From: a virus
Lineage: Duplodnaviria; Caudoviricetes
Strand: one strand, 5' to 3'
Virus record (IMG/VR): IMGVR_UViG_3300021400_000134
Length of the DNA: 64,000 nt
Positions 1 through 59,075 of the stretch are shown here, one piece after another (the stretch's first letter is position 1; each line of letters opens with the position of its first letter). A program made the translations under genes and the position numbers. The notes beneath the pieces were generated by a model, which ran no database searches, was not told the origin of the DNA, and saw nothing but the letters and a program-made list of their open reading frames with translations.

Positions 1-1
1 T

Positions 2-1513: not shown

Positions 1514-1534
1514 TTCAAAAGGAGGTAAAAGCTA

Positions 1535-2326: not shown

Positions 2327-2330
2327 AATT

Positions 2331-2368
2331 AAAAGGGTATCCTAATTTAGGATACCCTTATTTTTTTT
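2331..2368 (+). terminator. Rho-independent terminator
   Basis: AAGGGTATCCTAA-T-TTAGGATACCCTT stem followed by a T-run. Confidence 0.85.
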
Positions 2369-2414
2369 GGCCAAATGTATATAAGACATTTTCTATAAAA
2401 CTCAAATATTTTAG
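2369..2414 (+). promoter_or_regulatory. Candidate phage-specific promoter motif (GGNCAA..ATAA....TATA-like)
   Basis: Aligns without gaps to elements upstream of nrdD (30006-29961, -), 16491-16536 (+) and 23692-23647 (-). Confidence 0.45.
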
Positions 2415-2480
2415 AAAGAAAATAAGATTTTCTTTAATAGAGAAAATTTAATAGAATAAAAGGAGAAAGGAGCGTAATAA

Positions 2481-5405: not shown

Positions 5406-5410
5406 TATAG

Positions 5411-5452
5411 AGGAGAGTTAACTTGACTCTCCTTTTACTTTTATGTTATAAT
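5411..5452 (+). terminator. Terminator hairpin overlapping a sigma-A-like promoter (TTGACT-18-TATAAT)
   Basis: AGGAGAGTTA/TGACTCTCCT stem + TTT; TTGACT 5423-5428, TG-N-TATAAT 5447-5452. Confidence 0.6.
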
Positions 5453-5472
5453 AAGAGAGAAAGGAGACTACT

Positions 5473-7842
5473 ATGGCGTTAAGAGTTTGGCTACCGCTCA
5501 ATGGTAGTCTTGAAAATAAAGGGGTTAGTGATTATGAAATTAGAAGTGCTAATATCACTATAGCAGATGATGGGAAAATAGGAAAATGCTATAGCTTTAA
5601 TGGAAGTAATTCTTATATTAATATCACTAATTTTGAAATAGGAAATAATTGGTCATATGGATGTTGAATTAATACTCCAAATTCTGATTCTAGAGGTTGA
5701 GAAATTGTTATGATATTAAATAATTCTGGGTCAGATGCAGATTCTCAATTTGCTTTTTGAGTTCATCAAAAAGAGAATCGTTTTGAAAGTTTGGCAAATA
5801 CTCAATATGTATCTACCATTCCCTATACCAATTATTATAATAATTGACATCATTTTTTTGCAACTTTTAATGGCGCTTTATTAACAACTTATATTGATGG
5901 AAATGTAGTTAATACAAAAACTATTACAGCAACGCAATATAATGCCGTGAACTTAACAATTGGTGCACGAAGTACAAATGCAACAGGAACAGCTTTTGCA
6001 AATTGATTTCAAGGAAAATTAAATGATATTCGTGTTTATGACCATTGTCTTTCCGCAAAGGAAGTAAAAGAAATTTCACAAGGTTTAGTTTTGCATTATA
6101 AATTAGATAATCCTTCTATTACAAATTATTTTGAAACAGGAAATCTTATTCCAAATTATAGGGAAATGAATTTAGGTTCGGCCAATGTTTCTACAGGAAC
6201 TTGGCGTTTAGCTGGGACAAGTAATATGACTAGAGCAAGAATTCAAATTACAGATTCTCCAATTGGAACATGTTATTGTTTTCAAAACTCTGGTATACAA
6301 ACAGCTAATGATGGTTCATGTTATGGAATAGATAGTACAACTTATTTTGAACCAAATACTGAATATAGAATTTCAATGTTTGCAAGAATAACATCTGGAA
6401 CAGAAGGATATGCAGGTTATAATATTTATAATATTTCTTCAGAACTAGGTGGTTCTCATACGAAAATTGATAAAAATTATAGAGTAACTTCTTTAAATTC
6501 AGATGGTTCTTGAACTTATTGTTGATATCATTTTAAAACAAATTCAACGGCTACTAGAAATATTTATATTGGTATTACCACTGGAGAGACTTCTGTAACT
6601 ACACAAATGTGTTTAATTAGAATTGATAAATGAAATGATGGAATGGATACTACTAAAATTGTTGATTCTTCTGGTTATGGGAATGATGGAAGTGTAATTG
6701 GAAATACTTTAATTCAAAGAAATTTCTCTAGATATAATACATCTATTTATATGAACAATACAGGTACAACAAATCATATTGAATATAATGCTTTAAATAT
6801 TAGTGGCGCATTTACAATTAGTTTTTGAGTAAAGGCAGCATTGTCAAAAAATCAAGTAATTTTTATTGATAATGGACATGGTTATGAATTTGGTATTTTA
6901 AATAATTTATTTTATACATCAACAACGACAAATAAGGGATGAGCAACGTCAAAATTTTTAACAAATAATTGAAATCATATTGTTATAAGATCCTCTGATG
7001 GAACGACAGCAGAATTATTTATTAACGGAATTCAAGAAACTTCAAGAACGGGTGCGAATAATAATTATTTACATAATAAAACCAATCCTTGATTATTAAA
7101 TAGAGGTAATAATAGTAGCTATGCAGCTGATGCTAGTTTATCTGATTTCCGTATTTATGCAACTGCCCTTTCTGCAGAAGATATATTAGATTTATATCAT
7201 ACTCCAGCAAATATAGATAATTTACAAAATATGCATACTTTTGAATTTCGAGAAAATAGTGAAAAAACTTCAATATATCAAAATGGTATTACATCTACAA
7301 CAAATGAAATACATGAATCAAATGCAGAATTATTAAATACCATGAGTATTGGAGGTTATACTCCAGCAAAAAATATAGCAAATTCTTGCACTAATTTTGG
7401 ATATGCAAATTTTGATAATTATGCTTCTTTGGGCAAAGATTTAGCAGTGCATATAGAATGTGATGTTGAATGGACCGCATTTACAGCAGATACCGGAGGA
7501 ACTTTTAGAGGAGTTTGGTTTCAAGGAGCAAATTATGAAATTGCTTCAAGTTCTTTTAAATGAGCTGGTACGAATTATATATGTAGTGCTTTAAATTCAG
7601 CCTTTTCATTACAAACCATATCTACAATAACAACAGCTGGAAAACACCATTATAATATTACGACAACAATTCCTGCTAGTTGATTTGCAACATATAGTAG
7701 ATCTAATTTAGGTTGAAGATGTGATTATTCTGATGGAACAGGTCATATTGATATAAAAAATTTAAAAATAACTCCATTGCAATACTACAATGCTAAAATT
7801 GGTGAAGATTTTATTTCAGCAAATAATTTTATAGAAAAATAA
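5473..7842 (+). CDS. LamG/concanavalin A-like lectin-domain tail protein (789 aa, TGA=Trp)
   Basis: Fragments 5473, 6091, 6643 and 7231 are in one frame. LamG motifs NN(TGA)HHFFATFNG..TYIDG, FQGKLNDIRVYDHCLS and SLSDFRIYATALS; ends TAA. Confidence 0.8.
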
Positions 7843-7854
7843 GGAGGTGCCAGG

Positions 7855-8478
7855 ATGGCGCAATTAAATACATATACGGTATATTGTCATACCAATTTAA
7901 TAAATGGAAAAAAATATGTTGGTATAACAAAAAATGTGCCAGAAATCCGTTGAGGATATAATGGCATCAACTATAAAGGTTGTACTTTATTTTGAAAAGC
8001 GATAGAGAAATATGGTTGAAATAATTTTTCACATGATATTTTAGAAACTGGCTTATCAGAAAAAGAAGCTATAGAAAAAGAACGATATTATATAAAATTA
8101 TGAGACACAATGAAAACTAATGGATATAATTTGACTTCTGGCGGAGAAATTAATAAAGAAATTGACGAAGAATATAGACAGCGTTTAAGAGATTCTCATT
8201 TAGGTATAAAGTATTCTGAAACTACAAGAAAGAACATGTCTAAAGCAAAAATGGGTCATCCTGGTTATAATTGTAAACCTGTTTGAATGTGTGATAAAAT
8301 AACACATGAAAAAATTAAATATTTTAAAAATTCTATTGAAGCAGAAAAATTTTTAAATAAAGGCAACACGCGTGCTCATATTGGGCACGTATGCCAAGGA
8401 AAAAGACCTTCCGCTTATGGATATTACTGAATGTTTGCGGATAAGGCAGAAGGAGGTGTTGACCTATCGCACAATTAA
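7855..8478 (+). mobile_element. Free-standing GIY-YIG homing endonuclease with NUMOD3/NUMOD1-like C-terminus (207 aa; six Trp, all TGA)
   Basis: YTVYCHTNLINGKKYVGIT, AIEKYG(W)NNF, GYNLTSGG, TRKNMSKAKMG, SAYGYY(W)MF. Absent from the ORF track because of TGA. Confidence 0.85.
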
Positions 8479-9266
8479 AAGATAGCTTAATTACTGGTGA
8501 TTTGCGAGTCACTGGTACGATATATGGAGACGCCAATTTGAGTTCACTTAATGCGAGCGGAACTGGATTGGGGTCTAATGGACAAGTTTTAAAATCAACA
8601 GGAACTGGATTGGCTTGATTGACATTGGGAAGCTTGGCTTCTAAAAGTACAATTTCTAATCATTCTGTCACAATACCAACAGGAGAGACTAGTAGAACAG
8701 CGGATGTTGCAGTAAATACAACAACGGTTAACTCAATTACTGGTGTTGGTACATTGCCAAGTTTAACTGTTACGGCAACTGATGTAGTAACAGGCGGTAC
8801 TACTACTGCTATTCCAAATATTTCAAAGAAAACTGTTGTAACGGGTGTTACTAAAAAGACAGTTGTAACTGGAGGATCTACAACAGCAGTTCCTAACATT
8901 TCAAAGAAAACTGTTGTAACATCAGCAACTGCAGCAAAAGCTACCTATAGTTCTGGAGTATTGACAATTTCCGATGGAAGTGTGACGACCGGTGATTCAG
9001 TAACAGTAGGAACTGCAATTAATGCTTATACAAGTTTAACAACTGGAGATAGTGTTACTGTAACAACTGGTGATTCAGTAACAGTTGGTACAGCTATTAA
9101 TGCTTATACTGCTTTAACTACTTCAAGCATCGGTTCCGCTAGTAATTGAAGTGCTGGTACATTACCAACTAAAGGTTCTAATACAACTGTTGCTACTGGA
9201 ATTAAAACACAGCCTACATTTACAGTTACAACGCAAACAACAACATTAACACATACAATAAGTTAA
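8466..9266 (+). CDS. Thr-rich tail fibre/needle protein, probable ATC start
   Basis: GGAGG at 8452 then ATC GCA CAA TTA AAA GAT (AQLKDSLITGDLRVTGTIYG); in frame with ORF 8619 through TGA 8616 and 9147; ends TAA. Confidence 0.7.
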
Positions 9267-9278
9267 GGAGGTAATTAA

Positions 9279-10736
9279 ATGGCAAATGGTTTAATAGGAA
9301 AAATAACTGCCGGAGGTGGTACACATTTAATTGCCTCGACAGCTTACTTTACGTGTGCAACGGCTAAGGCTACTGCGGCAAAAGTGGCAGCTGCTGCAGA
9401 TACAAATTTAGATAATATAACTTTAATGACAGGCTTAACTATTTATGTAAAATTTACAAATCATAATGAAGTAGCAAATCCAACATTGGCTTTATATAAA
9501 TCAGATGGTACGACTAATTTAGTTGCTGCTAAACCTATTATGAGATATGGAACAACAACAGCTTATCAAAGTGCTGCTGGTTCTTGGCGCGATGGGGCAG
9601 TAGTAGCTTTTACTTATGATGGAACTAATTGAGTTGAGCACTCGAGTATTGATGATAATAGTAATGATACAGGATATTATGTTAGACATATCTATACAAA
9701 TATTAAAGCTGGTTCTGTTGGTATTTTCCCTTATACAATAATTATGCAAAGAAATGACGGACGTTGAGATTCTATTGTAACAAGTAGTTCTACTGGTACG
9801 TCAAAAGCGTGTAATACAAATGGATTCGTATTAGGTCAAGTCATGCTAATGTATGCGAATAAAACTTATGCCGCAGATGCTAATGTTGATACATATAATG
9901 TATGACAAATGCATAGCGGACTAGTTGATCATAGATATAGTTTTAATACCGCTAATAATGCAACAAGTGGTACTGCCGCTAGAAAACCTATATATTTAGT
10001 TGGGACTGTTACTAATGGATTATTCTATTTAGATACAACTAAATGATGAGCTACTGCTTTACCGACAAGTGCTGATGGGAAAGTCTATATTTATATAGGA
10101 GAATCTTATGATTATTATAGACTTACGTTTACTGGGTATCATCCAATATATCATTATACAAATGGAGCTTTAAGACTATACGGGGGAGACGCCTCAACGG
10201 TTAATGGACAAGTATTAGGTACATTAGCAACTAAATCCAGCATTGCTAATCATTCATATACGCCAGCTGGAAGTGTCTCCGTTTCTACTAATGCGACAAC
10301 CAATAAAACAGCTACGGTTAGCCCAGCGTCTTCTGGAACGGCTACATATACACCAGCTGGAACAATTGCTGTAAATACTGCAGGTTCTACTGTTGCTGCA
10401 GATGATATTACCGCATGAACAACTAATACGCCAACAGCGGTTACTAAAAAAACTGTTGTAACTGGTACGAGCGCAACTACAATTAGCGTATCTTCTGAAG
10501 TTTTAACAATACCTGCTTCCGTTATAACGTCTGCAACTACTGGTGATAGCGTTAGTGTAACAGCAGGTACAGCTGCATCATTATCATACACTGCACGTAC
10601 AGTTAAATCTGGAGATGCCAGTTATAAATTTACTGGTACTGGTGTGCGTTTGGTTACTGGTAATATTGCGGTTCCTAATACATATACCGCATCATTTACC
10701 GGCACAGCAGCAACATTGACTCATACAGTTTCATAA
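9279..10736 (+). CDS. Tail fibre protein (485 aa, TGA=Trp, including tandem TGA-TGA at 10044-10049)
   Basis: GGAGG RBS; single frame to TAA; C-terminal LGTLATKSSIANHS...TLTHTVS module paralogous to the preceding gene. Confidence 0.75.
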
Positions 10737-10746
10737 AATTTTTTTC

Positions 10747-10775
10747 TTGACACATCAAGAAAAATTTCGTATAAT
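10747..10775 (+). promoter_or_regulatory. Perfect sigma-70/sigma-A consensus promoter overlapped by an inverted repeat
   Basis: TTGACA-17 nt-TATAAT; TTTTTCTTGA-CACA-TCAAGAAAAA palindrome over the -35 box. Confidence 0.8.
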
Positions 10776-10780
10776 ACATA

Positions 10781-10948
10781 TAGGTTAAGATGGTAAGTCG
10801 ATACCAGAATGAAAAGTTTAAAAAATGGATTGGGAATATTTAGCTGGAAAATCCTTATCATCTTAATCTATTTTAAAAAATCGCCTCTTATTCCAAAAAA
10901 TAGGAGGGAGGGGGTAAGTTTTAAATCTCTTACCTCCCATATTTTTTT
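10781..10948 (+). ncRNA. Candidate small structured RNA
   Basis: Starts at the predicted +1. A 17-bp stem (10781-10797 with 10854-10870, two G-U pairs) is followed by a terminator-like hairpin (GGGGGTAAG/CTTACCTCC + T-run). Confidence 0.45.
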
Positions 10949-10963
10949 ATAGGAGGATACAAC

Positions 10964-11917
10964 ATGGCGGATATAAAACAGATAAAGGTAGGCACTACTA
11001 CCTATGATATAAAAGATGGTACCGCTAGAGAAGCATTATCTGAAAAAGTGTCTAAAGCTGGTGACACCATGACAGGAAACTTATGAATAAGTAATGGTTT
11101 AACCAAAGGAACAAACCCAAGTTCTGATACCACTCGCTATGTATCTTTTGTTGATGGTGAAGGAATCGCTGTAGATAATAGAACAGGTGCGATTATTAAC
11201 CAGATAAAAACAGATGGAACATCTTTTACTGGAATTTATGCCTATGATTTTACTGCTGATTCTACTCAAGCCCAAGTTTTAAGAACATTTAAACCGCAAG
11301 GCGGTAATGGATATTCAAATGTTAGTAGCGCTGATGTTTCTAATGCGGTTTTAAGAAATATTGGTTATGGTACAGGCTCTCCTAGTGGTGGCAGTGATGG
11401 AGATGTTTATATTCAATATAATACAACTTCCACACATCCATTTTTAGATTTAGTTTATCCAGTGGGTGCAATTTATTTATCTACTGTTAATACAAATCCT
11501 GGGACTTTGTTTGGAGGAACTTGAAGTCAAATTAAAGACAGGTTTTTGCTTGCGGCAGGTGATACTTATGCTGCTGGAGGTACTGGTGGTGCTGCAACAG
11601 TAACGTTAAGTAAAGCTAATATGCCGGCTCATACTCACAGTAGAGGCACCATGGAAATCAAAGGTAGTTTTCGTATTAATGATGATGGCAATAATGCTGG
11701 TCTTGATGCTGCTAGTTCTGGAAGCGGAGCCATTAGCGCGGTAAGCGGAACAGGAACAGGTTCAGATGTAGATGGAACTGGATGAGCAGTAACGAAAGGT
11801 TTTGATTTTCAAGCTTCTAAGAATTGAAGCGGGGCAACATCTTCAGAAGGCTCTGGTACTGCGCATGAAAATATGCCACCATATCTTACTGTTTATGTTT
11901 GGCAAAGGACTGCATAA
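10964..11917 (+). CDS. Tail/baseplate fibre protein with gp10-C/tail-collar-like domain (TGA=Trp)
   Basis: MADIKQIKVGTTTYDIKD...YPVGAIYLSTVNTNPGTLFGGT(W)SQIKDRFLLAAG...HENMPPYLTVYVWQRTA; TAA. Confidence 0.75.
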
Positions 11918-11930
11918 GGAGTAATATAAT

Positions 11931-13001
11931 ATGGCTGTTTATGTAGGAAGTAGTTGAGTAGAATTAGATAGATGGTCTGATGCTACTGGTTATGGTAATA
12001 ATGCTGAATGAAGACTAATGGCATATTCCAGACAAGGCGATGCAACAAGCAATAGTTCAACAGTTTATTTTAAATGACAGGTAAGTTGTTCTACCGGCTC
12101 TGTTTATAATTATGATGCTCATTATTCGAGTGTTTCTGGTACTGGCCCAATGGGGGACGGTCATAATGCAACACAAACCTGAGCTTTTGGAAGTGTACCT
12201 GATACGAGTTGGCATGAAGTTACTGGCGATTCTTCTGATATGTATTGGTCAGGATTGAAACATAGGGCAGATGGAACTTGTTCTCTTACTCTAAATGCTT
12301 CTGGTACAAGGTGGAATAATTCTAGTTTTAGTACAAATATTAGTATTACTTTACCGACAATTAGTAGAACCTATACTGTTTCATACAATGCTAATGGAGG
12401 AACAGGCGCCCCAAATAGTCAAACAAAAACGCAAAATGTTACTTTAACATTATCAAGTACAAAACCGACGAGAACCGGTTATACTTTTTCTAAATGAAAT
12501 ACCAAAGCAGACGGTTCTGGCACTAACTATAATCCAGGAGCATCTTACACTACTAATGCTGCACTTACGCTATACGCGCAATGAACAATTAATACCTATA
12601 CAATTACTATTAACCCTAATGGCGGTTCATTTACTTCAAGCAAAAATAGCACAGCGCAATCAACGGCTCAATCTTATACAGTAAATTATGGCAGTAGTAT
12701 TACAAATATTACTGCAAGTCGTTCTGGTTATATGCCAGCTGGATGATTTACTGAGTCTTCTGGTGGAACAAAAGTTATAAACAATGGTGGAAGTTTAAAT
12801 TCAATTTCTTCATCTCGTACTATATATGCACAATGGACAAAAGAAGACCCCCCACCAGACCCAATTTATGATGTTTATACAAAAATTGGCGGAACATGGG
12901 TGCCAGGAGTGATTTGAATTAAAGTTAACGATGTTTGGTATAGAGGCTTAGAAACAACTCTAAAAGTTAGTGGTTCTTGAAGAAAAATGAAAGCGCAATA
13001 G
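11931..13001 (+). CDS. Virion protein with InlB B-repeat / Listeria-Bacteroides repeat domains (TGA=Trp)
   Basis: YTVSYNANGGTGAP...PTRTGYTFSK(W)NTKADGSG...LTLYAQ(W); conserved repeat Trp positions are TGA; ends TAG. Confidence 0.8.
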
Positions 13002-13017
13002 AGAAAGGTGGTAGAAT

Positions 13018-13674
13018 ATGGCAGCGGTTAAACAAATTAAAATTGGAAACACAAATTATGATTTAAAAGCTCTCAATGCTGCTAATCAAAACCAAAGTGG
13101 TGCAGTAGTAAGAGATATACAATATGGCACTGCAGCTCCAACAGGCGGTTCTGCGGGACAGATGTATTTACAATATGTTAATACAGATACTGAAAATTTA
13201 TATTTATACGCAGAAGATACCGCTGCAGATACTACAGGAGTGGCTGATAAATATTACAGTAAAAGTGAAGTTGATGCTATGATTGCTAATCTTACTAATA
13301 AAACAACCTGACATAACTATGCTTGAGGAGGCAATACATCTTCAGGTCAAACTGTAACTATTACATGTTCTGGTCCTGGCTTTATTATAATTTCAGCTTT
13401 TATTAGAGCTAATAATAGTACAGATAACTATGGTCTTTTAGCTACCTCTATATCTAAATCAGATAATAATGGTTCTTCTTGGAACGAAATTTCTAGAGAA
13501 GAACATAGAAAACATGGATCAGGTTATTCTATAGCTCCTGCTGCTTTTGCTTCAACAGGAACTTCTACTTCAAGTGCTACAAGATTTAAAATTGAATTTA
13601 ATAGGTCTTATGAGGGAACTCATTATTGAAGAATAGAGGTTCTTTCTGTTGGATGTACTGTAACTAAATTATAA
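13018..13674 (+). CDS. Putative receptor-binding/tail fibre protein, paralog of 15246-15902 (TGA=Trp)
   Basis: MAAVKQIKIGNTNYDLKALNAANQNQS N-terminus shared with 15246; reads through TGA to TAA. Confidence 0.7.
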
Positions 13675-13688
13675 GAGGATAATCGATT

Positions 13689-14105
13689 ATGGCACAAAAC
13701 AAGTATATTAAGCAAAATGGTGAAGTAATATACCCTATTACGAAAACTGAAAATGTATTAAATAAAGCTGGATTGGATTGTTTTGGTTGATGTAATGGCA
13801 TAATGTGATGTTACGCAACTAGAAGTTCTACCAGTACGGTAGATTGAACTTTAAATGCAAATTTTGGTTCTAATGGAATAAAGATTAATACTTTAAAGAT
13901 GGATGGAACTGTGCAAAGGGTTACTTTTACGTCATCTTTAGCTTCAACAAACTATGGGGTTTGAGTTTCAGCAGAAGTTGGTGGAACAGCCAGCGAAATT
14001 CTTGGCGTATATGGTAGAACTACAAGTGGTTTTGCCATCGATTGTGCGAATTATAATGGAGCTGCAACTCAACCAGTCCAAATAAGTATTTTAATTATAT
14101 ATTAA
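13689..14105 (+). CDS. Small tail-associated protein (TGA=Trp), N-terminus paralogous to 15908
   Basis: GAGG RBS; MAQNKYIKQNGEVIYP vs MAQIQYLKKNGELIYP; not in ORF track. Confidence 0.65.
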
Positions 14106-14125
14106 TTAAAGAAAGGTGATAGAAT

Positions 14126-14215
14126 ATGGCGGCTGTAAAACAGATAAAAATAGGTAATATTAATTATAATATGCTGCTATATTTAACAGTTTACATGTGA
14201 AGAAGAACGGCATAA
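14126..14215 (+). pseudogene. 29-aa chimeric remnant of an internally deleted tail gene
   Basis: MAAVKQIKIGNINY fused to NMLLYLTVYM(W)RRTA*, i.e. the first and last ~14 residues of neighbouring paralogs; RBS retained. Confidence 0.7.
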
Positions 14216-14231
14216 CTAAAGGAGGTAAGAC

Positions 14232-15236
14232 ATGGCTACACTTGGAACTTCATGAACTAATATAGGAAGTCAAAGTTTCTCTGTTGGCGGTTATGGTCAT
14301 ACCGCCTACATATATGCAAAATTAAACCATCAATCTGGATTAACCTCTTATATTGATTTAGAATTAAGAATTAATTATAGTGTTTGATTACAATCTTATG
14401 ATACAGACTTTTATTTAACCGGTTATGGATGATTAGGCTATGCCTATAGAGAATGAATGAGTGCTGGAACATATACGATTATGTCTTCTAGCATAACGGT
14501 AGGACATGACTCAAATGGAAATGCATCCTTTGCAGCTCAAGGTGGTTATGAATACAAAGGAATGGGTGTCAGCGCAACCACATTCTGAAGTAGTACCTAT
14601 AGTCTGCCTAAAATTACTGTAAATTATACAGTAACTTATAATGCGAACGGTGGTTCTGGCCAACCTGGAAACCAGACCAAAGTTCATGGAACAAATTTGA
14701 CATTATCTTCAACTAAACCTAGTTGAAGTGGACATACATTTAAACATTGAAATACTGCGGCGAATGGTTCTGGTACATCTTATAATCCAGGAGGAACATA
14801 TTCTACAAATGCGAATGTTACATTATATGCACAATGAGATAATGAAACATATACAATTACATACAATGCAAATGGAGGAGATGGCGCGCCAGATACTTCA
14901 ACTAAAGTTTATGGTAGTCCAATGAGATTATCTACAATAACCCCAACGAGAGCAGGGTATACGTTTTTTAGATGAAATACTGCTTCTGATGGAACTGGAC
15001 AAGATTTTAGTCCAGGTGGATTATTTGGAATAGATGCCACTACAACATTATATGCTATTTGAATACCGAATGGTACTGCGCCGACTGGTTTGTTTGATTG
15101 CTACACTGCAATCAAAGGAGCTGGACAATATACTCCTTGCTTTATATGGATTAAAGTAGGAAGTACGTGATATTTTGTTAAAAAAACTGCGGTAAATGTC
15201 GGCGGGACATGGAAAACTGTAAGTAACAAAGGATAG
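14232..15236 (+). CDS. Second InlB B-repeat virion protein (TGA=Trp), paralog of 11931-13001
   Basis: GGAGG RBS; YTVTYNANGGSGQP...PS(W)SGHTFKH(W)NTAANGSG...TLYAQ(W); ends TAG. Confidence 0.75.
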
Positions 15237-15245
15237 GAGGAGAAT

Positions 15246-15902
15246 ATGGCAGCTGTAAAACAGATTAAGATAGGTAATACAAACTACGATTTAAAAGCAT
15301 TGAATGCGGCTAATCAAAATCAATCAAATGCTGTTGTAAGAGATGTCCAGTATGGAACAGCTACTCCTACTGGCGGAAGTGCTGGTCAAATATATTTACA
15401 ATATACTAATACAGATACCACCAATCCCTATGTTTATGCTGAGGATACTCCTGGAACTGAAGTTAATGTCAGTGATAAATATTACAGTAAAACTGAGGTT
15501 GATAATAAATTTGCTTGAAAAAAATTTGGTTCACATAGTGGAGCAGATAATTGAGATATAACTTCTTGTTGAAACCAATGTCAAGAATTATATATTGTTG
15601 TTAGTAAATACTTTAGAGGTTCTAACACTTCAGCGAATGAAGTCATAGAATTACAATGTCACGTATTAAAACAGCAGGTTGAAGAAGATTGGACTAGTTC
15701 ATACAATACTGGAAAAATTGTATTTATTCCAGCTGGAAATAGATATAATAATAATCAAGGAAATAGCAGTATTTGAAATGCCCTTTTTAGATTACATAAT
15801 GGTAATGGTAATGTTTATCTTCAGTTAAACGAATTATTTTGTGTATCACTCGCTTCAACAAATCAGAATGGCTCAGGGTATTATATATTATATTGAAGGT
15901 AA
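15246..15902 (+). CDS. Putative receptor-binding/tail fibre protein, paralog of 13018 (TGA=Trp)
   Basis: Conserved ~90-aa N-terminus, unrelated C-terminus; reads through TGA to TAA 15900-15902. Confidence 0.7.
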
Positions 15903-15907
15903 TTATT

Positions 15908-16384
15908 ATGGCACAAATACAATATTTAAAAAAGAATGGGGAATTAATATATCCTCATATTTCAGTTGACCAAATATACCCAGTGGGGAGTATTTATATG
16001 AGCATAAATAACGCGAATCCTGAAGACCTTTTTGGTGGAACATGGGAACAGATCCAGGGAAGATTTTTACTTGCAGCTGGTGGTGGTTATAATGCCGGTG
16101 CAACTGGAGGAGAAGCTAATCATACGTTAACCTCTAACGAAATGCCAAGTCATTATCACTCTTTTCAATGGTCTGCTTCTAATTCTGAATATGATGCTGG
16201 AGTTAGTGGTAGTACAAATCCTTGAAATTTTGGTAATTTAACAGATGAAGGACATTCTGTTATGGTACACTGAACATATAATGGTAGTGAAAGGCAGGGT
16301 AATACCAGCAGCACCGGCGGAGGCGCAGCACATAACAATATGCCACCATATTTAGTAGTATATGTTTGAAAAAGAACAGCTTAA
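15908..16384 (+). CDS. gp10-C/tail-collar-like domain protein (TGA=Trp)
   Basis: YPVGSIYMSINNANPEDLFGGTWEQIQGRFLLAAG...HNNMPPYLVVYV(W)KRTA; TAA. Confidence 0.75.
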
Positions 16385-16593
16385 TTAATAAGATCGAGGA
16401 AATACTAGATGAGCTTTTGTCTTTAAAATTGCTGATGGATCAGTGGATGCACATATTGATTAAAATAAAATATAATAGTAGATTTAATTTGGACAGGTTT
16501 ATATAATTTTGCCTGCCCATTTTTTATTTATAATGTACCGAGGGAAGGTACTCAATAGAAAAGTTTTACTAATAATGGAAAGGAAGTAAAGTT

Positions 16594-16974
16594 ATGATGA
16601 ATTATTCAGGATACCCTGCTCCAACGTATCCAACTTATGGAGCAATGGGTCAACAACAACTTTATACCCAGAGACAAGAAGTGGTTAGGGTCAATGGGCG
16701 AAATGGTGCAAATGCTTATCAAATGGCGCCAAATAGTAGTATACTACTTTTAGATGAGACTGCACCAATTATTTGGTTAAAAACAACAGACGGAGCATCA
16801 TATCCAACAGTAACTGGATATACGATTACTCCAATTGAAACTCAAGCAACAACTACGGCGAGTGTAGATTATTCAGCTTTAGAAGAAAGAATATCAAAAT
16901 TAGAAGAGGCATTCAATGCAAGGAAATCCGATGCTTCAGATTCTAAACCAATCAAGACCATTAATAAACAATAA
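16594..16974 (+). CDS. Hypothetical protein (conserved Firmicutes phage cluster, gene 1)
   Basis: ORF with RBS; VNGRNGANAYQMAPNSSILLLDET..IWLKTTDG. Confidence 0.6.
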   Translation: MMNYSGYPAPTYPTYGAMGQQQLYTQRQEVVRVNGRNGANAYQMAPNSSILLLDETAPIIWLKTTDGASYPTVTGYTITPIETQATTTASVDYSALEERISKLEEAFNARKSDASDSKPIKTINKQ

Positions 16975-17155
16975 TATGGTCTCAATGATAAAAAACTCGC
17001 CTAATCCTCAAGTTTTGCTAAATAATTTATTGGCGCAAAATCCTAAAGTATCTGGATTAATAAATCAATATGGCGGTGATGCAAGAACCGCTTTTTATGC
17101 GCTTGCGCAACAAAAGGGGGTAGACCCTAATTCAATATTAGACATGTTAAAATAA
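16916..17155 (+). CDS. Hypothetical Gln/Asn-rich protein (cluster gene 2)
   Basis: GAGG RBS; NPMLQ...AFYALAQQKGVDP. Confidence 0.6.
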   Translation: MQGNPMLQILNQSRPLINNNMVSMIKNSPNPQVLLNNLLAQNPKVSGLINQYGGDARTAFYALAQQKGVDPNSILDMLK

Positions 17156-17209
17156 GTCAACCTAATTAGTAAGACTTAACTATTGAATTACTAATTAGGA
17201 GGATTTAAA

Positions 17210-17875
17210 ATGGAAAATGGAAGTTTATCAGCTAGTGATGTTGCTTTACTCAGTGATCGCAATGGTTATGGTGACATGTGGGGCGGCAATTCCATGATGT
17301 GGATTTTTGCTTTATTGATTCTTGCTGGTGGCGGCTTTAATGGTTGGGGTAACAACGGCTTCGCTAACGCAATCGGTTATGAAAACTTGGCAACACAATC
17401 ACAAGTAGATCGTGGTTTTGATACCCAGAATATGATGGCAAATCAAAGAGAAACTCTTGCTGCTGTCAATGCTGGAACCGCACAAGCAGTAGCCGCAACT
17501 AATCAGACATTCCATGACACAGTTAATGCTTTAAGTGATAAATATAGTGAACTTGCTAGAGATATCAGTGGCTTAGCTGTTGGTCAGGCTAATTTGTTAG
17601 CAAAAGAAAATGAATGTTGCTGCCAGACACTTCGCGCAATTGATGGTGTAAATTATGCGAATGCTTTAAATACAGCTGCAATTAATGAAAACACAACTGC
17701 GCAGACTCAGAAAATCCTAGATGCTATTACTGGTAATCGTATGGCTGACATGCAAAATCAAATTAACCAATTACAGCTTCAGCAAGCTGTTGCTGGTGTA
17801 GTTCGCTACCCAAGTGCTAGCACTTATTACGCAGGAACAAATCCGTTCTGCGCTTGCGGTGGAGCAACACTTTAA
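17210..17875 (+). CDS. Hypothetical membrane-anchored coiled-coil protein with CCC motif (cluster gene 3)
   Basis: Strong RBS; Gly-rich hydrophobic segment, ECCCQT, C-terminal PFCACG. Confidence 0.65.
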   Translation: MENGSLSASDVALLSDRNGYGDMWGGNSMMWIFALLILAGGGFNGWGNNGFANAIGYENLATQSQVDRGFDTQNMMANQRETLAAVNAGTAQAVAATNQTFHDTVNALSDKYSELARDISGLAVGQANLLAKENECCCQTLRAIDGVNYANALNTAAINENTTAQTQKILDAITGNRMADMQNQINQLQLQQAVAGVVRYPSASTYYAGTNPFCACGGATL

Positions 17876-17885
17876 TATGTAAATG

Positions 17886-17919
17886 AAGGGCGACTATTTA
17901 AGTTGCCCTTTTTATTTTT
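17886..17919 (+). terminator. Rho-independent terminator
   Basis: AAGGGCGACT/AGTTGCCCTT stem + T-run. Confidence 0.8.
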
Positions 17920-17953
17920 AATCAAAAGGGAAAAGTTTAGGAGGAATGATTAA

Positions 17954-18364
17954 ATGTTAGAAGTATATTCTAAAAATGTAACAGTTGCGGAAAATGGAAT
18001 AATTCCACTAACTACCGTAGCTTTAGTTAAAGGAACAAGCACTCAATTATTAGGCACATCTACAATTCAGTTTAACAAATGCGGAATTTATGAAGTTACA
18101 GTATCTGGTAGTGTAACTGGAAGTGCGGCCGGAGAGATTGTAATCCAGCTTGAGAAAAATGGTGTTGTCCAGCCTCAAGCCGTATCATTAGCAACTGCCG
18201 CAGATGCAACTTCAATAATTCCATTTAGTTTTACAACTTTAATTCAAGTTCCAGATAGTAATAACATCAATTGCCCTTGTTCAACAACAACAACCATTTA
18301 TTTAAGAAATGCGGGAATTGAAGATACATATAATACAATTACTGTAACCGCAGTCCGCATTTAA
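17954..18364 (+). CDS. Beta-sandwich (BclA-C/C1q-like) protein (cluster gene 4)
   Basis: GIYEVTVSG...FSFTTLIQV pattern; family call tentative. Confidence 0.5.
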   Translation: MLEVYSKNVTVAENGIIPLTTVALVKGTSTQLLGTSTIQFNKCGIYEVTVSGSVTGSAAGEIVIQLEKNGVVQPQAVSLATAADATSIIPFSFTTLIQVPDSNNINCPCSTTTTIYLRNAGIEDTYNTITVTAVRI

Positions 18365-18378
18365 TAAAGAGGTGCAAT

Positions 18379-18939
18379 ATGACACTTGAAGAGATTTATT
18401 CTGAATTAAGTGCCCATATGATAAAGGGTCTAATGGTTCATGACCAAATGGCTAAATATTACTGTTTTTTAAGTCTAAAAGGCTATGCAAAATGTCATAC
18501 CTATCATTATCTTTGTGAAAATAAAGATTATATGGAATTAAATCATTATTATCACAAACATCATAATAGACTAATAAAAGAAAAGCCTATATCAGACCCA
18601 AAATTGATTCCAAATGCATGATATGCATATCAAAGGGTAGATGTTGATGCAACAACCAAGAGGAATGCTGTTAAAACCGGCATGGAGAAATGAATAGAAT
18701 GAGAAACAGAAACTTTAACATTATATTCTAAGATGTATAAAGAATTATTTGCTCTTGGAGAAATTGCGGATGCTGAATATGTTGCTTGTTTAATAAAAGA
18801 GGTAGATGAAGAATTAGCGCAAGCAAATTCTTTATATATAAAAAAGAAAACCTGTGATTTCGATATTAGCGCAATCATGGGCGATCAAGAAGAAAAGTTT
18901 AAAGAATACTATGAAAAAATAGAAGAAATTTGGAGGTAA
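18379..18939 (+). CDS. Ferritin-like four-helix protein (186 aa, three TGA=Trp)
   Basis: Fragments 18379 and 18733 are in frame; His/Glu-rich helices; K(W)IE(W)ETETL. Confidence 0.6.
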
Positions 18940-18943
18940 AACT

Positions 18944-20875
18944 ATGGCTTTAAAAGGGATTGATATCAGCAATTGGCAAAACGGAATTAACTTATCTACT
19001 GTCAAGGCTGATTTCGTAATCATCAAATCTTCTGAAGGTATTGGATGGACAGACCCAGCTTTTAAACAATTATTCGCTGCTGCGAAAAAAACAAGTAAAA
19101 AATTGGGGGTTTATCATTTCGCGCGACCAACCGCTGATAACGATCCAATTAAAGAAGCTGAGAGTTTTGTTAACATTATTAAGCCAGAAGGTGTTATTGG
19201 TAAAGCTTTACTTGTTCTTGACTGGGAGGCTGAAAATCAGCATAACACAGCTTGGGCAAAATCTTGGTTAGATAAAGTATATGCGCTAACTGGTGTAAAA
19301 CCTATGATTTACATGAGTGAAAGTGTGGTTAATGCTTATAACTGGGATGCAGTTGCTAACGCTGGATATGAGCTCTGAGTCGCCAAGTATTGAGACAACG
19401 CACCTGATTATAATTATGATATGTCTAATGCTGGCAATAAGCCATCAATTAGTCATTGGAAAAATTATAAAATGTGGCAATGGACTTCTACTGGAAGATT
19501 AGATGGTTATGATGGCAATTTAGATTGCAACGAGTTCTATGGAACAGCTGCGGATTGGGATAAATTAGTAAATGCCGCAGGAAAGAAAGAAGAACCAAAA
19601 AAGGAAGAAACAACTGAAACAACAACAATTGAAATTCCAGGATATTCAACAAATGTAGTCATGAGTCCAACAGATTGGTTCAATATGACTTATGGTCATA
19701 GCTATGATATTGATGGCTACTATGGTGCCCAGTGCTGGGATTACTTTGCATATTTCGTACAATATACTGGCATTGGTGTAAGCACATACTGTGCATTAAC
19801 TCACTATGTTGGTGACTTATGGACATTAAAAGACCAGTATGGTTATTCAGAACATTTTGAATATATTACAAATCCTAATGCATTACAAAATGGTGACTGG
19901 TTAATCTGGCCTCAGGGCTCTTCTAACCCATTATCACATGTCGCAATGTATTGGAATGGCCAGATTTTAGGCCAGAACCAGGGTGGAGCAAGAATTGTTA
20001 CTTTGGCTAACGCATATTTCGACATTGCTGGTGCATTAAGATGGAAAGGTTGGAATGGCGGAGGCGGTTCTCCAGCAGAGAAAATCAATCTTAAGAATTA
20101 CACTGATGCGGAATTAGCTCGCATGGTTATTGCTGGCAGATTCGGAAATGGCGATACAAGAAAGAAACTTCTTGGAACTCGTTATGATGGCGTTCAGGAT
20201 ATGGTTAACCGCATCTTAAATGGTGAAGCAGTAGATCTAAAAGACAATGAAACAGTCGCACGCGAAGTCATCCAGGGCCTATGGGGCAATGGAGACGACC
20301 GTTATAACAGATTAACTGCTGCTGGATATAACTATGATGCAGTTCAGAATCTTGTAAATCAAATCTTAAATGGCGGCGGAGGTTCTTCAAAGAAATCTAT
20401 TGATGAAATTGCTCAAGAAGTTCTTGCCGGCATCTGAGGTAATGGTGATGACCGTTATAACGCATTAACAAATGCTGGTTATGACTACAACGCAGTTCAG
20501 GCTCGTGTAAATGAATTATTAGGATATGGCACAGCCAAAGATTCTAATGAAACAGTCGCTGACCAAGTAATCGCAGGATTATGAGGAAATGGCGATGACC
20601 GCTACAATAGATTGACTGCTGCTGGATATGATTACAACACAATCCAGGCAATTGTTAATCAGAAACTTGGATATGGCGGTGGTGCAAGCATTGGTGTTGG
20701 TTCTAATATTCGCATTGGCTACAACGCTACTGACTTAAACAGCGGAACATTCTATGCTCCATTTGTTTATCAGAATGTATACCAGGTATTTGAAATCAGC
20801 GGCCGCAGAGTAGTATTTGGCACTAATGGAACAGTAATTGGTGCTACCGATATTGGTAATGTATCATTAGCATAA
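18944..20875 (+). CDS. Modular endolysin: GH25 muramidase + CHAP-like domain + CW_7 repeats (643 aa; four TGA=Trp)
   Basis: GIDISNWQ, GVYHFA, LVLDWE, L(W)VAKY(W), WQWTS..G.LD.N; AQCWDY...SHVAMY; repeats IQGLWGNGDDR / LAGI(W)GNGDDR / IAGL(W)GNGDDR. Confidence 0.9.
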
Positions 20876-20888
20876 GGAGGGTTTTAGC

Positions 20889-21218
20889 ATGGACAGTTTT
20901 TTCTCACTAATCGCTATTGCAACACTGATTGAAGCCCTTATTTCTTATGGTAAAACTATTGTCAATAAAGGCACAATCCAATGGCAAATTATTTTAGCGT
21001 TTATTATTGGAATTGTCTTTTGCTACGACACTGGTTTAAACTTCTTTGCAATGTTGGGCTTAAGCGAACAGTGGCCTATTATTGGGACATTAGCGACTGC
21101 TGTTACATTGTCTCGTGGTTCAAATTATATGTTTGAGTTTTATAATCAACTAACCACTTGGCGCAAACAAGCAACAGAACAAGCAAATAATAATAACAAC
21201 GGGGTTAGTTCTATTTAG
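20889..21218 (+). CDS. Putative holin
   Basis: Small multi-TM protein directly after the endolysin; LSRGSNYM motif. Confidence 0.65.
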   Translation: MDSFFSLIAIATLIEALISYGKTIVNKGTIQWQIILAFIIGIVFCYDTGLNFFAMLGLSEQWPIIGTLATAVTLSRGSNYMFEFYNQLTTWRKQATEQANNNNNGVSSI

Positions 21219-21236
21219 AACTAACCTCTTTTTTTG
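21201..21236 (+). terminator. Rho-independent terminator ending the lysis unit
   Basis: GGGGTTAGTTCTA/TAGAACTAACCTC stem + T-run. Confidence 0.8.
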
Positions 21237-21237
21237 T

Positions 21238-21266
21238 TTGACTTTTCTGGAAAAATTTTATATAAT
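21238..21266 (+). promoter_or_regulatory. Sigma-A-type promoter driving the hsp20-tRNA unit
   Basis: TTGACT-17-TATAAT. Confidence 0.75.
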
Positions 21267-21290: not shown

Positions 21291-21467
21291 ATGAAGCTAT
21301 ATTTAAAAGATTATGAACAGTTAAAAACGGTAGAGAACTTCTTGTTCAGATTTATATATTCAAAGTCTTTTACCTTACAAATTTTTATAGAAGATACTAA
21401 TGACCAATTTAATTATGAAACAATTCATAACGATTTAGCTGGTGGATTAGTTCTTGTAACTTTTTAG
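21291..21467 (+). CDS. Small hypothetical protein
   Basis: AAGGAG RBS then ATG 21291 (track start 21234 lies upstream of the promoter). Confidence 0.55.
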   Translation: MKLYLKDYEQLKTVENFLFRFIYSKSFTLQIFIEDTNDQFNYETIHNDLAGGLVLVTF

Positions 21468-21481
21468 GAGGTATTTTTATT

Positions 21482-21853
21482 ATGATGTTTGATTATGATT
21501 CTTTTTTCAATTGGGATAAACCCGCTTACACTTTTAGTCGTTCAGTACATGATATGCATCCCTATTCTATTAAAACATTGGATGACAGGGTAGTATTGGT
21601 TCATAATATTGTCGGTGTTAAAGAAGACGATATTAAGGTTGATATTGTTAATAAAGATGGTAGAGACCAGCTTGTTATCGAGGGTGTAACTCATAACGAT
21701 TTGCTGAACTATGATTACAAAATTAATTCAAGATTCGATATTAAAGCAGATATGTTTAAGAATGTAACTTATTCTGTTGAAGATGGTTTGCTATATATCA
21801 ATCTATTTAAGAAAGAACCAGAAGCAACTAAATTAATAGTTACGAAAGCCTAG
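21482..21853 (+). CDS. Small heat-shock protein (Hsp20/alpha-crystallin domain)
   Basis: IVGVKEDDIKVDI...LVIEG...YSVEDGLLYINL pattern; 123 aa. Confidence 0.7.
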   Translation: MMFDYDSFFNWDKPAYTFSRSVHDMHPYSIKTLDDRVVLVHNIVGVKEDDIKVDIVNKDGRDQLVIEGVTHNDLLNYDYKINSRFDIKADMFKNVTYSVEDGLLYINLFKKEPEATKLIVTKA

Positions 21854-21887
21854 AGAATTTTTTAAAGAAGTTCTCTACTCTATTTAT

Positions 21888-22165
21888 AGGGGTATGGTGT
21901 AATTGGGAACACTACGGTCTTCAACCGGGAGATGTTAATCCTTAAATTGGTGCGTTGCGGTAGGGATGCCGCAAATGAAGGTGATGATATCGGTGAACCC
22001 TAAACGAAAGCATGGGAATACCGAGGGAACGAAAGGCCCGTAGAGACTAGATAATCACCCGGCTAGAACAGTCGAAGATATAGTCCAGACTACAAACAGA
22101 AATGGTGGCGAAAGTCATAGTAGTACGCAACACCGTCTATTCAGGTTCGAACCCTGATACCCCTG
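21888..22165 (+). tRNA. Opal (UGA)-decoding tRNA-Trp, anticodon UCA, interrupted by a group I intron (exons 21888-21921 and 22128-22165)
   Basis: Acceptor AGGGGTA/TACCCCT + G73; D-arm GTGT/ACAC; anticodon stem ACGGT/ACCGT; spliced loop CT-TCA-AC; T-arm TCAGG-TTCGAAC-CCTGA; 4-nt variable loop; CCA not encoded. Confidence 0.9.
21922..22127 (+). ncRNA. Group I self-splicing intron (206 nt, no ORF) inserted between U34 and C35
   Basis: 5' exon ends in U paired U.G in P1 (GUCUU/GAGAU); P3 GGTGAT/ATCACC; P4 TCGGT/ACCGA; core GTAGAGACTA and AAGATATAGTCC; GNRA-capped P2 and P9; terminal G. Confidence 0.9.
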
Positions 22166-22190
22166 CTTAAGCAAAATAAGGAGTGTACAA

Positions 22191-22583
22191 ATGTTTAATC
22201 TAGAAGATATGTCAATAGATGAATTAGCAAATTTGCAAAATCAATGTTCTAGTATTTTAAGTCAAAAAATAAAAGAAGAAAAAGATAATGAATTACATAG
22301 TATTAAAGAAAAATATGAAGGTAAGTATATTATTTTACATGGCACCCTTTATCATATAAAAGAAATTAATAACCGTTATAATTATGATTGCTCAAAAGCA
22401 GAATGTTCACATTCTCATTGGAGAGGTACTGATACGTATCTTATAAAAATTGGCGAAGGTGCCGATTTGTTAAAGATTGATACAGAAGGTAATTATCCAA
22501 TAGAACAAGGTGTCCTTACAACTGCGGAAGAAGCAGAAGATTTTTTAAACGAAATGTTTAAAGAAATTAAGGAAAAATTCTAG
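22191..22583 (+). CDS. Hypothetical protein
   Basis: 130-aa ORF with AAGGAG RBS. Confidence 0.6.
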   Translation: MFNLEDMSIDELANLQNQCSSILSQKIKEEKDNELHSIKEKYEGKYIILHGTLYHIKEINNRYNYDCSKAECSHSHWRGTDTYLIKIGEGADLLKIDTEGNYPIEQGVLTTAEEAEDFLNEMFKEIKEKF

Positions 22584-22591
22584 GAGGGATT

Positions 22592-23005
22592 ATGACAGCA
22601 CAAATGTTACAAGAAATTTTCTTTACTGTGTTAATTCCATTAGTTGGTATCTTGTGTACTTATGGAATTGCATTTTTAAGAAAAAAGACACATGAGATTC
22701 AGGTACAGGTAAATAGTGAACTATTCACTAAATATTCAGAAATGCTAATTGGATTAGTTGAAACTTGTGTTATTGCTACAAATCAAACTTATGTTGATGA
22801 ATTAAAAGCACAGGGCAGATTTGGTCCAGAAGAGCATGATATTGCATATCATAAAACATTCGATGCGGTAAAGGCATTAATGACAGAAGAAATGCAAAAA
22901 GTTCTTGGAGAAGTTTATAAAGATATTGATTTCTATATCTCACAGCTTATTCAGGAACAGGTTAATACGGCTAAACTTGTAAAGGTCGCAAGTCAAAATG
23001 GGTAA
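22592..23005 (+). CDS. LL-H-family holin-like membrane protein
   Basis: N-terminal TM; VIATNQTYVDELKAQGRF; LIQEQVN. Confidence 0.6.
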   Translation: MTAQMLQEIFFTVLIPLVGILCTYGIAFLRKKTHEIQVQVNSELFTKYSEMLIGLVETCVIATNQTYVDELKAQGRFGPEEHDIAYHKTFDAVKALMTEEMQKVLGEVYKDIDFYISQLIQEQVNTAKLVKVASQNG

Positions 23006-23050
23006 AAAAAATAAGGAGAATGATTAATTTTCATTCTCCTTATTTTTTTT
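23004..23050. terminator. Bidirectional terminator at the strand convergence
   Basis: Perfect 20-bp inverted repeat AAAAAAAATAAGGAGAATGA / TCATTCTCCTTATTTTTTTT. Confidence 0.85.
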
Positions 23051-59074: not shown

Positions 59075-59075
59075 A

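Follow-up and report, generated by a model that had tools for sequence, protein, structure and literature searches.

How are the UGA codons of a recoded phage translated when the tRNA that should read them is cut through its anticodon by an intron, and does such an intron serve as a switch of the genetic code? This question is raised by a locus in the phage record IMGVR_UViG_3300021400_000134 of IMG/VR, of which a segment of 64,000 nucleotides with 34% guanine plus cytosine (GC) was analyzed (hereafter, the window). An earlier inspection of the letters of this segment, referred to below as the sequence-only reading, had noticed two tRNA halves separated by a candidate group I intron, and had proposed that the splicing of this intron acts as a timer or a metabolic sensor for the translation of virion and lysis genes. 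Our analysis indicates that the gene is a predicted UGA-decoding, tryptophan (Trp)-type tRNA(UCA), in which a genuine group I intron separates U34 from C35. The explanation that we consider highly probable is that an opal suppressor was split by an ordinary tRNA-type intron without an open reading frame (ORF), and that this intron is an inherited passenger, whose splicing is obligatory, but which was not built as a timer.

Anatomy and splice register of the split tRNA gene

The split gene consists of three parts, all on the plus strand, as are the other features of the window located below unless marked otherwise. The 5′ exon (21888-21921), which was delimited by ARAGORN with introns allowed, by alignments and by a covariance model, contains tRNA positions 1-34 and ends in CUU, U34 being U(-1) of the intron. 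The intron (21922-22127), supported by alignment, a profile hidden Markov model (HMM), the covariance model and covariation, is ORF-less, 206 nt long and similar to the IC3 type of tRNA introns, and its last nucleotide, the omega-G, lies at 22127. The 3′ exon (22128-22165), recognized in the sequence and by ARAGORN, contains positions 35-72, starts with CAAC and ends with the discriminator G73; CCA is not encoded.

When introns were allowed, ARAGORN found one gene (21888-22166) with an intron of 206 nt. The exons joined in silico gave a 72-mer, for which ARAGORN confirmed the cloverleaf claimed in the sequence-only reading, with the 7-nt loop CU-UCA-AC and the anticodon UCA. The discriminator G73 and the A1-U72 pair are identity marks of tRNA-Trp of the bacterial type. 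Both are readable in the spliced tRNA together with G2-C71 and G3-C70, and the whole identity set named in that reading is present in the sequence; position 9 is G, not A.

The splice register, which cuts after CTT on the 5′ side and after G on the 3′ side, was chosen because it alone satisfies both U(-1) and the omega-G and yields the loop of the intronless orthologues. The anticodon loop of these orthologues, which score 62 bits with the Rfam tRNA model, is CTTCAAC and is identical to the predicted junction CTT^CAAC. The label Cys (GCA) given by ARAGORN to the split gene was rejected: its register is off by one base, would end the intron in C and not in the omega-G, and contradicts the intronless orthologues.

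At default settings, ARAGORN found no tRNA in the 64-kb window, and a search with Rfam at the gathering thresholds gave no match anywhere in it. The gene is thus hidden from routine annotation, and the suspicion that the intron conceals the tRNA from standard scans was well founded.

Homology of the intron

When IMG/VR was scanned for the core strings of the intron, more than 100 loci were retrieved. According to ARAGORN, 51 of 125 pattern matches lie inside split tRNA genes, some of the long-intron calls being doubtful. Most of these genes are interrupted at the same site after CTT; the commonest is tRNA-Leu(UAA), followed by Arg(UCU), tRNA(UCA) and Ile(UAU). An alignment of 19 genes revealed one common intron architecture, in which the intron of the window is aligned with 11 phage introns that interrupt tRNA-Leu, Arg and Ile genes at its own insertion site. 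An HMM built from these 11 non-UCA introns only gave a single match in the window (21945-22127, E 1.2e-23), and a covariance model built from the same introns gave a full-length match (21916-22133, 131.9 bits, E 2.3e-35). Both matches reach the region of the omega-G, and G22127 is invariant in the alignments. The covariance search suggested in the sequence-only reading was thereby successful with the non-UCA introns, although the Rfam group I model RF00028 (Intron_gpI) remained blank, as discussed below. By homology, the intron is a member of the classical group I family inserted at 34/35 of tRNAs.

For the UCA-class intron, two exact-pattern scans of 185,579 bacterial and archaeal species genomes (one genome per species) gave zero matches, which is weak evidence of absence, and the matches among GenBank phages are limited to short stretches of the core in introns of unrelated phages. 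Elsewhere in the window, the tRNA-intron covariance model matched weakly at two places, 46464-46549 and 58951-59083 (-), with 11 bits and E ~0.1; these matches are most likely noise.

Structure of the intron

The full structure, including the P3/P7 pseudoknot, was written on 12 UCA-class genes, and structures in which the pairing partners were slid served as controls. In the written structure, 96.5% of the cells are paired, as compared with 35-45% in the slid controls, and the pairs changed on both sides number 33, as compared with 5-7. From the 19-gene alignment, RNAalifold recovered the tRNA stems and P2, P4, P5, P6, P7, P8, P9.0 and P9, with compensatory changes in 39 of 57 pairs. Every core helix is 90-100% paired, compensatory changes being found in P2, P3, P4-P5, P7, P8, P9.0 and P9, while the core strings are invariant across the 12 UCA-class genes. 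The mean column identity of the intron-split gene in these 12 genes, exons included, is 82%, against approximately 70-80% for most of the flanks.

The helices are arranged as follows. P2 (21955-21974) is a hairpin of 8 bp with a GGGA loop of the GNRA type, and 6 of its 8 pairs show compensatory changes. The 5′ strand of P3, GGUGAU (21980-21985), pairs with AUCACC (22054-22059); this helix is 100% paired with 2 compensatory pairs, and the other intron classes have CTTGTT/AGCAAG and TGGTAC/GTACCA there. The P4-P5 domain (21990-22024), supported by RNAalifold and covariation, consists of P4 (21990-21995 with 22019-22024) and P5 (21998-22000 with 22014-22016). It is followed by P6 (22025-22039), a GGG/CCC helix with a GAAA-containing loop, for which the alignment and covariation provide the evidence. 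The 5′ strand of P7, GACUA (22045-22049) in GUAGAGACUA, pairs with UAGUC (22081-22085) in AAGAUAUAGUCC, and in 5 relatives a C-G pair of this helix is changed to G-C or G.U. The P8 hairpin (22060-22074) has compensatory changes in 4 of 5 pairs. Finally, P9.0 (22089-22093 with 22120-22124) encloses P9 (22105-22118), which has a GAAA loop; this domain (22089-22124) is again supported by RNAalifold and covariation.

P1 requires closer description. The internal guide UUGGUG (P1/P10; 21947-21952) was located in the alignment, where its columns coincide with those of P1 when L150 is aligned to RF00028 and with those of the guide in the Leu, Arg and Ile introns. The UUG part pairs with the first C-A-A of the intron and, after step one of splicing, can pair with the identical C-A-A of the 3′ exon (P10). 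The GUG part stands opposite C32-U33-U34 of the exon, forming a G21952-C32 pair, a U.U mismatch and a G21950.U34 wobble at the splice site. The wobble between U34 (21921) and G21950 is invariant, being found in all 12 UCA-class genes and in all 19 aligned genes. The first pair of the P1 extension covaries by class, being C-G in UCA-class introns and mostly A-U in those of the Leu class. A mismatch of U33 with U21951 is seen in all 12 UCA-class introns; at the latter position, the Leu, Arg and Ile introns have A.

The P1 named in the sequence-only reading, GUCUU/GAGAU, could not be retained. It fits the subtype of the window only: most other subtypes have AAG, with which U(-1) would face A, and one has neither. 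This segment is a variable hairpin within the P1 loop and differs in every subtype. The rest of the group I core described in that reading, namely P3, GTAGAGACTA, AAGATATAGTCC, the GNRA loops (GGGA in P2 and GAAA in P9) and the terminal G, is present. We also rejected a competing hairpin that mimics the anticodon stem (CGGU of the exon with ACCG of the intron). Its length falls from 6 bp (GCGG subtypes) through 4 bp (window) to 3 bp (L272/L002), and the changes are uncompensated; in the window itself one pair is mismatched, and in the L272/L002 type the hairpin is broken without compensation.

A larger variant of the intron was observed in two relatives. At L003:3334-3728 (-) and L006:2524-2918, the same tRNA and intron occur with an insertion of approximately 116 nt in the P6 loop, which is richer in GC and ORF-less, and the intron there is 322 nt long.

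Recoding of TGA and identity of the tRNA

The late block of tail and lysis genes (1529-20875), which was delimited by ORFs, domain matches and codon counts and includes a GH25/CHAP/CW_7 endolysin, is dependent on UGA being read as Trp. The in-frame Trp codons within 1-20000 comprise 90 TGA as compared with 54 TGG. TGA is found in 14 of the 16 long plus-strand ORFs of this region and in several minus-strand stop-to-stop ORFs as well, so that the earlier estimate of more than 20 genes needing TGA=Trp is about right. Among the long minus-strand replication ORFs, those of Pol III alpha, NrdD, GyrA and NAD ligase contain no TGA and that of GyrB contains one. Thus, the phage is a TGA=Trp phage of the code-4 type, in which TGA is concentrated in the structural and lysis genes and the standard code is kept in the replication genes. 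The host was judged to be a Gram-positive anaerobe from the CW_7/GH25 endolysin and NrdD.

In codon alignments with the syntenic relatives (counts including near-duplicate loci), TGA of the window is opposite TGA 160 times and TGG 24 times, and TGA of the relatives is opposite TGG of the window 155 times; the next codons in the two directions reach 12 (AGA) and 11 (TCC). TGA is therefore exchanged mainly with TGG, in agreement with the recoding proposed earlier for the late genes, and Trp is a well-supported meaning of UGA as far as the alignments can tell. From the identity marks, we infer that tRNA(UCA) would be charged with Trp. A1-U72 and G73 are common to tRNA(UCA) and the tRNA-Trp(CCA) of the relatives, and the latter is more similar than any other array tRNA to 4 of the 5 suppressor types compared. 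For the suppressor type of the window itself, the best array match is a tRNA-Gln, by one point.

Distribution of the intron among relatives

The relatives were collected with the upstream Hsp20-like protein as the query, which is neutral as to the intron, and 18 syntenic loci (83-100% identity) were obtained. The intron is found at 34/35 in 14 of them, with lengths of 178-206 nt (one is cut by a contig end), and an uninterrupted tRNA(UCA) occupies the same place in the other four. A 15-mer scan for intronless alleles (CGGTCTTCAACACCG) had given 120 loci, none with a tRNA, and these were discarded as chance matches; a longer gapped pattern recovered the true intronless alleles. In a tree of the flanks (616 nt), the four intronless rows occupy two positions, and each of these lies nested within rows that have the intron. 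A single clade with 100/100 support unites the UCA-class introns and separates them from the Leu, Arg and Ile introns. Because there is one UCA-class clade and the intronless rows are nested at two places, the distribution fits a single entry of the intron into tRNA(UCA), after which it would have descended with a degree of recombination and been lost, alone or through replacement of the gene, at least twice.

For the 20 kb that precede the locus, we then calculated which fraction of the Trp codons is TGA. This share is 0.62 in the window and 0.75 and 0.78 in two intron-bearing relatives (G001 and G002, respectively), and it is 0.58 and 0.74 in two intronless ones (G003 and G004, respectively). 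The shares of the intronless relatives are thus comparable with the range of 0.62-0.78 of the intron-bearing ones, which indicates that heavy recoding of late genes works without the intron. The survey of co-occurrence that the sequence-only reading had suggested therefore did not turn out in favor of the switch: the intron is present in 14 of 18 loci, and the intronless lineages recode as heavily.

In four near-complete relatives (138-178 kb), 22-28 tRNAs per genome are arrayed at a great distance from the suppressor locus (G001:C1:141000-156000; G002:C1:139500-148200; G003:C1:124700-138000; G004:C1:1-8300), none of which has the anticodon UCA. No second UCA tRNA was found in the two intron-bearing relatives that are 93-94% complete, and the split gene is thus the only UGA decoder found in them. 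We infer from these relatives that splicing is needed for function in the phage of the window. The arrays include intronless Leu(UAA), Arg(UCU) and Ile(UAU) tRNAs with the same CUU end of the 5′ exon, and tRNA-Trp(CCA) is present in three of the four genomes. The intron profile revealed no further copy of the intron in these arrays. In G003, a Thr(GGT) call of ARAGORN suggested a second intron, but the profile does not match it, and the call is likely false.

Two peculiarities of the tRNA were observed in certain relatives. One is that a 178-kb relative has an intronless tRNA(UCA) (L270:3400-3491) with a long variable arm, composed of a 5-bp stem and the 7-nt loop GUCCAUA; the arm loop resembles the anticodon loop of tRNA-Trp (CCA) and may be a decoy for tryptophanyl-tRNA synthetase (TrpRS). 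Another is that a candidate theta-type ribozyme, which is similar to that of hepatitis delta virus (HDV), starts immediately 3′ of the discriminator base or one base further on at L274:3681-3745, at the same place in L275, at L003:3268-3334 (-) and at L006:2918-2985. The candidate P1 is GACCCAG/CUGGGUU in L274, GACUCAG/CUGAGUU in L275 (a compensatory change) and GGCCUCA/UGAGGCU in L003. The four candidates have a common GGGUAAYGCUAAC core, and a weak match to RF02682 was obtained. Since this ribozyme lies beside the split tRNA in these four loci, maturation of the suppressor there would need two ribozymes. No theta motif was found 3′ of the tRNA of the window (downstream of 22165).

Passenger intron or code switch

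In the passenger explanation, the course of events would be as follows. The unit would be transcribed from the promoter at 21238, and the intron would fold into P1-P9 with the P3/P7 pseudoknot. Guanosine would attack after U34, held in the U.G wobble with G21950, and the 3′ splice site would be set by the omega-G at 22127, so that ligation of the exons would produce the loop CUUCAAC. After processing of the ends and addition of CCA by the host, the TrpRS of the host would charge the tRNA, which would then insert Trp wherever UGA stands in frame in the tail and lysis genes. Nothing in the sequence separates this intron from the tRNA-Leu, Arg and Ile introns of the same family in phages. It is too short (206 nt) for an ORF, and no regulation-specific element that would make splicing conditional was found in the sequence.

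Several points weigh against this explanation. The intron is kept in most of the relatives in spite of only 68-82% nucleotide identity of the flanks, and a useful element would look alike. The verdict that it is a passenger is based on two intronless lineages only. The tRNA scan of this phage covers the 64-kb window, and at least 46 kb of further genome could hold a second UCA tRNA. The short P1, with its invariant U33.U mismatch beside the splice-site wobble, might slow or condition splicing. In addition, RF00028 gave no match in the window, even at E<=10 on 21700-22350, and its gathering threshold is thus not reached. We attribute this last result to the poor reach of the model for this subclass, because homologues of the intron do match it: RF00028 finds three homologous phage tRNA-Leu(UAA) introns with 58-69 bits. 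Williams 2020 (bioRxiv 10.1101/2020.01.27.920355) describes the Rfam group I seed as being without bacterial sequences.

The competing idea of a ribozyme-gated code switch, in which splicing as a timer or a guanosine/Mg sensor delays the translation of tail and lysis genes, appears unlikely to us, even though it has observations on its side. The split tRNA is the sole UGA decoder found in the near-complete intron-bearing relatives, so that late translation must await splicing there. The gene has TGA-free neighbors and a promoter of the host type upstream, 14 of 18 relatives have retained the intron, and the invariant U33.U mismatch of P1 could weaken docking of the 5′ splice site. Furthermore, an HDV-like ribozyme lies 3′ of the same tRNA in two related lineages, and control of a code switch has been proposed for such ribozymes (PMC10879173). 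What speaks most directly against gating is that late-gene recoding is just as heavy in two nested lineages whose tRNA(UCA), at the same locus, is uninterrupted, and the timer or sensor role proposed in the sequence-only reading is thus unsupported. A special role is also unneeded, as the same intron family resides in ordinary sense tRNAs of many phages. No regulatory sequence element came to light, and the competing 5′ hairpin that might have provided one loses its pairs without compensation in L272/L002 and contains a mismatched pair in the window. Finally, group I introns of this type splice in seconds to minutes, which is short relative to an infection cycle. A narrower form of this idea, to which we give slightly less credit still, is that the intron and, in some relatives, the 3′ HDV-like ribozyme are together kept as a kinetic checkpoint for the timing of tail and lysis translation, with the U33.U mismatch as the tuner.

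A protective or concealing role is more doubtful than gating. In this case, the suppressor would be kept inert by the intron, as a shield from host anticodon nucleases or for avoidance of early toxicity to the host. The intron interrupts the anticodon exactly, so that the precursor cannot decode, and in the genomes of the relatives it is found only in the suppressor and not in Leu(UAA), Arg(UCU) or Ile(UAU) with the same CUU end. Nevertheless, the intronless lineages thrive, and the specificity for the UCA gene is more simply explained by the guide UUG matching C-A-A of the 3′ exon. The least probable of the alternatives, and one that we regard as very improbable, is that the gene is a dead, non-splicing relic and that UGA is read by a tRNA of the host or by a phage tRNA outside the window. 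The failure of both the group I and tRNA models of Rfam on the window, the weak P1, and the restriction of the analysis to a 64-kb window of a larger genome would be in keeping with it. A relic is nevertheless difficult to reconcile with exons and intron helices that are all kept by compensatory changes across diverged relatives, with a core that is better conserved than the flanks (82% mean column identity against approximately 70-80% mostly), and with the lack of another UCA tRNA in the 93-94% complete relatives; moreover, a decoder is required for the approximately 90 TGA codons that stand in frame within 20 kb of late genes. We therefore retain the reading of the intron as an inherited passenger with obligatory splicing.

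Transcription unit and neighboring genes

The tRNA is situated in a unit without TGA codons. The lysis operon upstream is closed by a terminator-like hairpin (21201-21228) with a 12-bp stem followed by a T run. Just downstream, a sigma-70-like promoter (TTGACT-17-TATAAT, 21238-21266) is the likely start of the tRNA unit as judged from the consensus match, which amounts to 11 of 12 positions. The sequence-only reading had placed an early sigma-A promoter at 21238; a good match does exist there, and the early timing is conjectural. The conserved upstream neighbor of the tRNA is an Hsp20-like gene without TGA (21482-21853; phrog_432, and PF00011 below the cut-off). Between its stop codon and the tRNA lies a hairpin, TAGAGAA-N13-TTCTCTA (21851-21877), which begins at the stop codon and is separated from the tRNA by 10 nt. 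All the relatives have this hairpin, with varying loops, and its 12-nt arm GAAGTTCTCTAC recurs inverted at 21330-21341. This hairpin could be a processing or attenuation site.

On the downstream side, a holin-like membrane protein gene without TGA (22592-23005; phrog_13712, E 2.7e-23) directly follows the tRNA in most relatives, and a terminator-like hairpin (23004-23050) lies at the end of the unit. In the window, an ORF of 130 amino acids without family matches (22191-22583) separates the tRNA from the holin-like gene. This ORF was found only in the window and in the closest relative, L260; the other relatives compared lack it, and in most of them the holin-like gene comes directly after the tRNA.

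Comparison with known systems

The closest known counterpart is the cyanobacterial and plastid tRNA-Leu(UAA) intron (IC3; "Leu.3Ug" in Williams 2020, bioRxiv 10.1101/2020.01.27.920355). It is alike in the 34/35 site after CUU, in U(-1).G and in the omega-G, and it is likewise a small ORF-less P1-P9 intron with GNRA loops and an alignable core, GUAGAGACUA and AAGAUAUAGUCC. It differs from the intron of the window in three respects. One is the host gene, which in the window is a phage stop-codon suppressor, tRNA(UCA). Another is the guide: UUU/GAG there, as compared with UUG/GUG in the window, which matches C-A-A of the 3′ exon and leaves the U33.U mismatch. The last is that the intron of the window has an extra variable hairpin in the P1 loop and is missed by RF00028. 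Arg.5Ug, fMet.2Ug, Ile2.5Ug (the Azoarcus type) and 17 further classes in Williams 2020 are also self-splicing IC3 introns of the anticodon loop mapped by U(-1) and the omega-G, but they have other insertion positions or isoacceptors. That survey deals with bacterial genomes, not phages. We found no paper on an intron-split suppressor tRNA(UCA), the searchable papers on recoded phages reporting introns in protein-coding genes only and the class table of Williams 2020 being left uncompared for Trp/UCA. The nonsense suppressor is a new host gene for the known 34/35 tRNA intron family.

As for the phage, the TGA-recoded gut phages of the Agate clade (Borges et al., bioRxiv 10.1101/2021.08.26.457843) are similar in their low GC content, genome size (~140-180 kb), Gram-positive anaerobe host and concentration of TGA=Trp in structural and lysis genes, a likeness drawn from genome size, code and host type only. 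Their suppressors are intronless and detectable by tRNAscan-SE, whereas the gene of the window is split and escapes detection. Suppressor tRNAs were detected in only 35% of the code-4 genomes in that study; surveys of recoded phages give 35-40% of genomes, and their authors suspect unusual tRNAs (bioRxiv 10.1101/2021.08.26.457843; likewise PMC12386605). Intron-split suppressors are one concrete and checkable reason for missing suppressors and may help to explain the detection rate of 35% in TGA-recoded phages: with default tools, 14 of the 18 syntenic loci of the present lineage would be scored as having no suppressor. An intron-aware search (ARAGORN -i together with a tRNA-intron covariance model) would improve the prediction of codes and the calling of genes in recoded phages. 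The naturally occurring intron-bearing and intronless alleles provide a direct test set for the timer idea.

The theta ribozymes found at suppressor tRNAs (Kienbeck et al. 2024, PMC10879173) offer the other parallel. Among the published theta-associated suppressor tRNAs, 99.7% are amber, and no code-4 genome is included among such phages; the text of that paper makes no mention of introns (PMC10879173). As in the split tRNA(UCA), a ribozyme is needed there for maturation of the suppressor, and a part in a code switch has been proposed for it. The theta ribozyme differs in being a self-cleaving processor of the 3′ end, and not an intron (PMC10879173).

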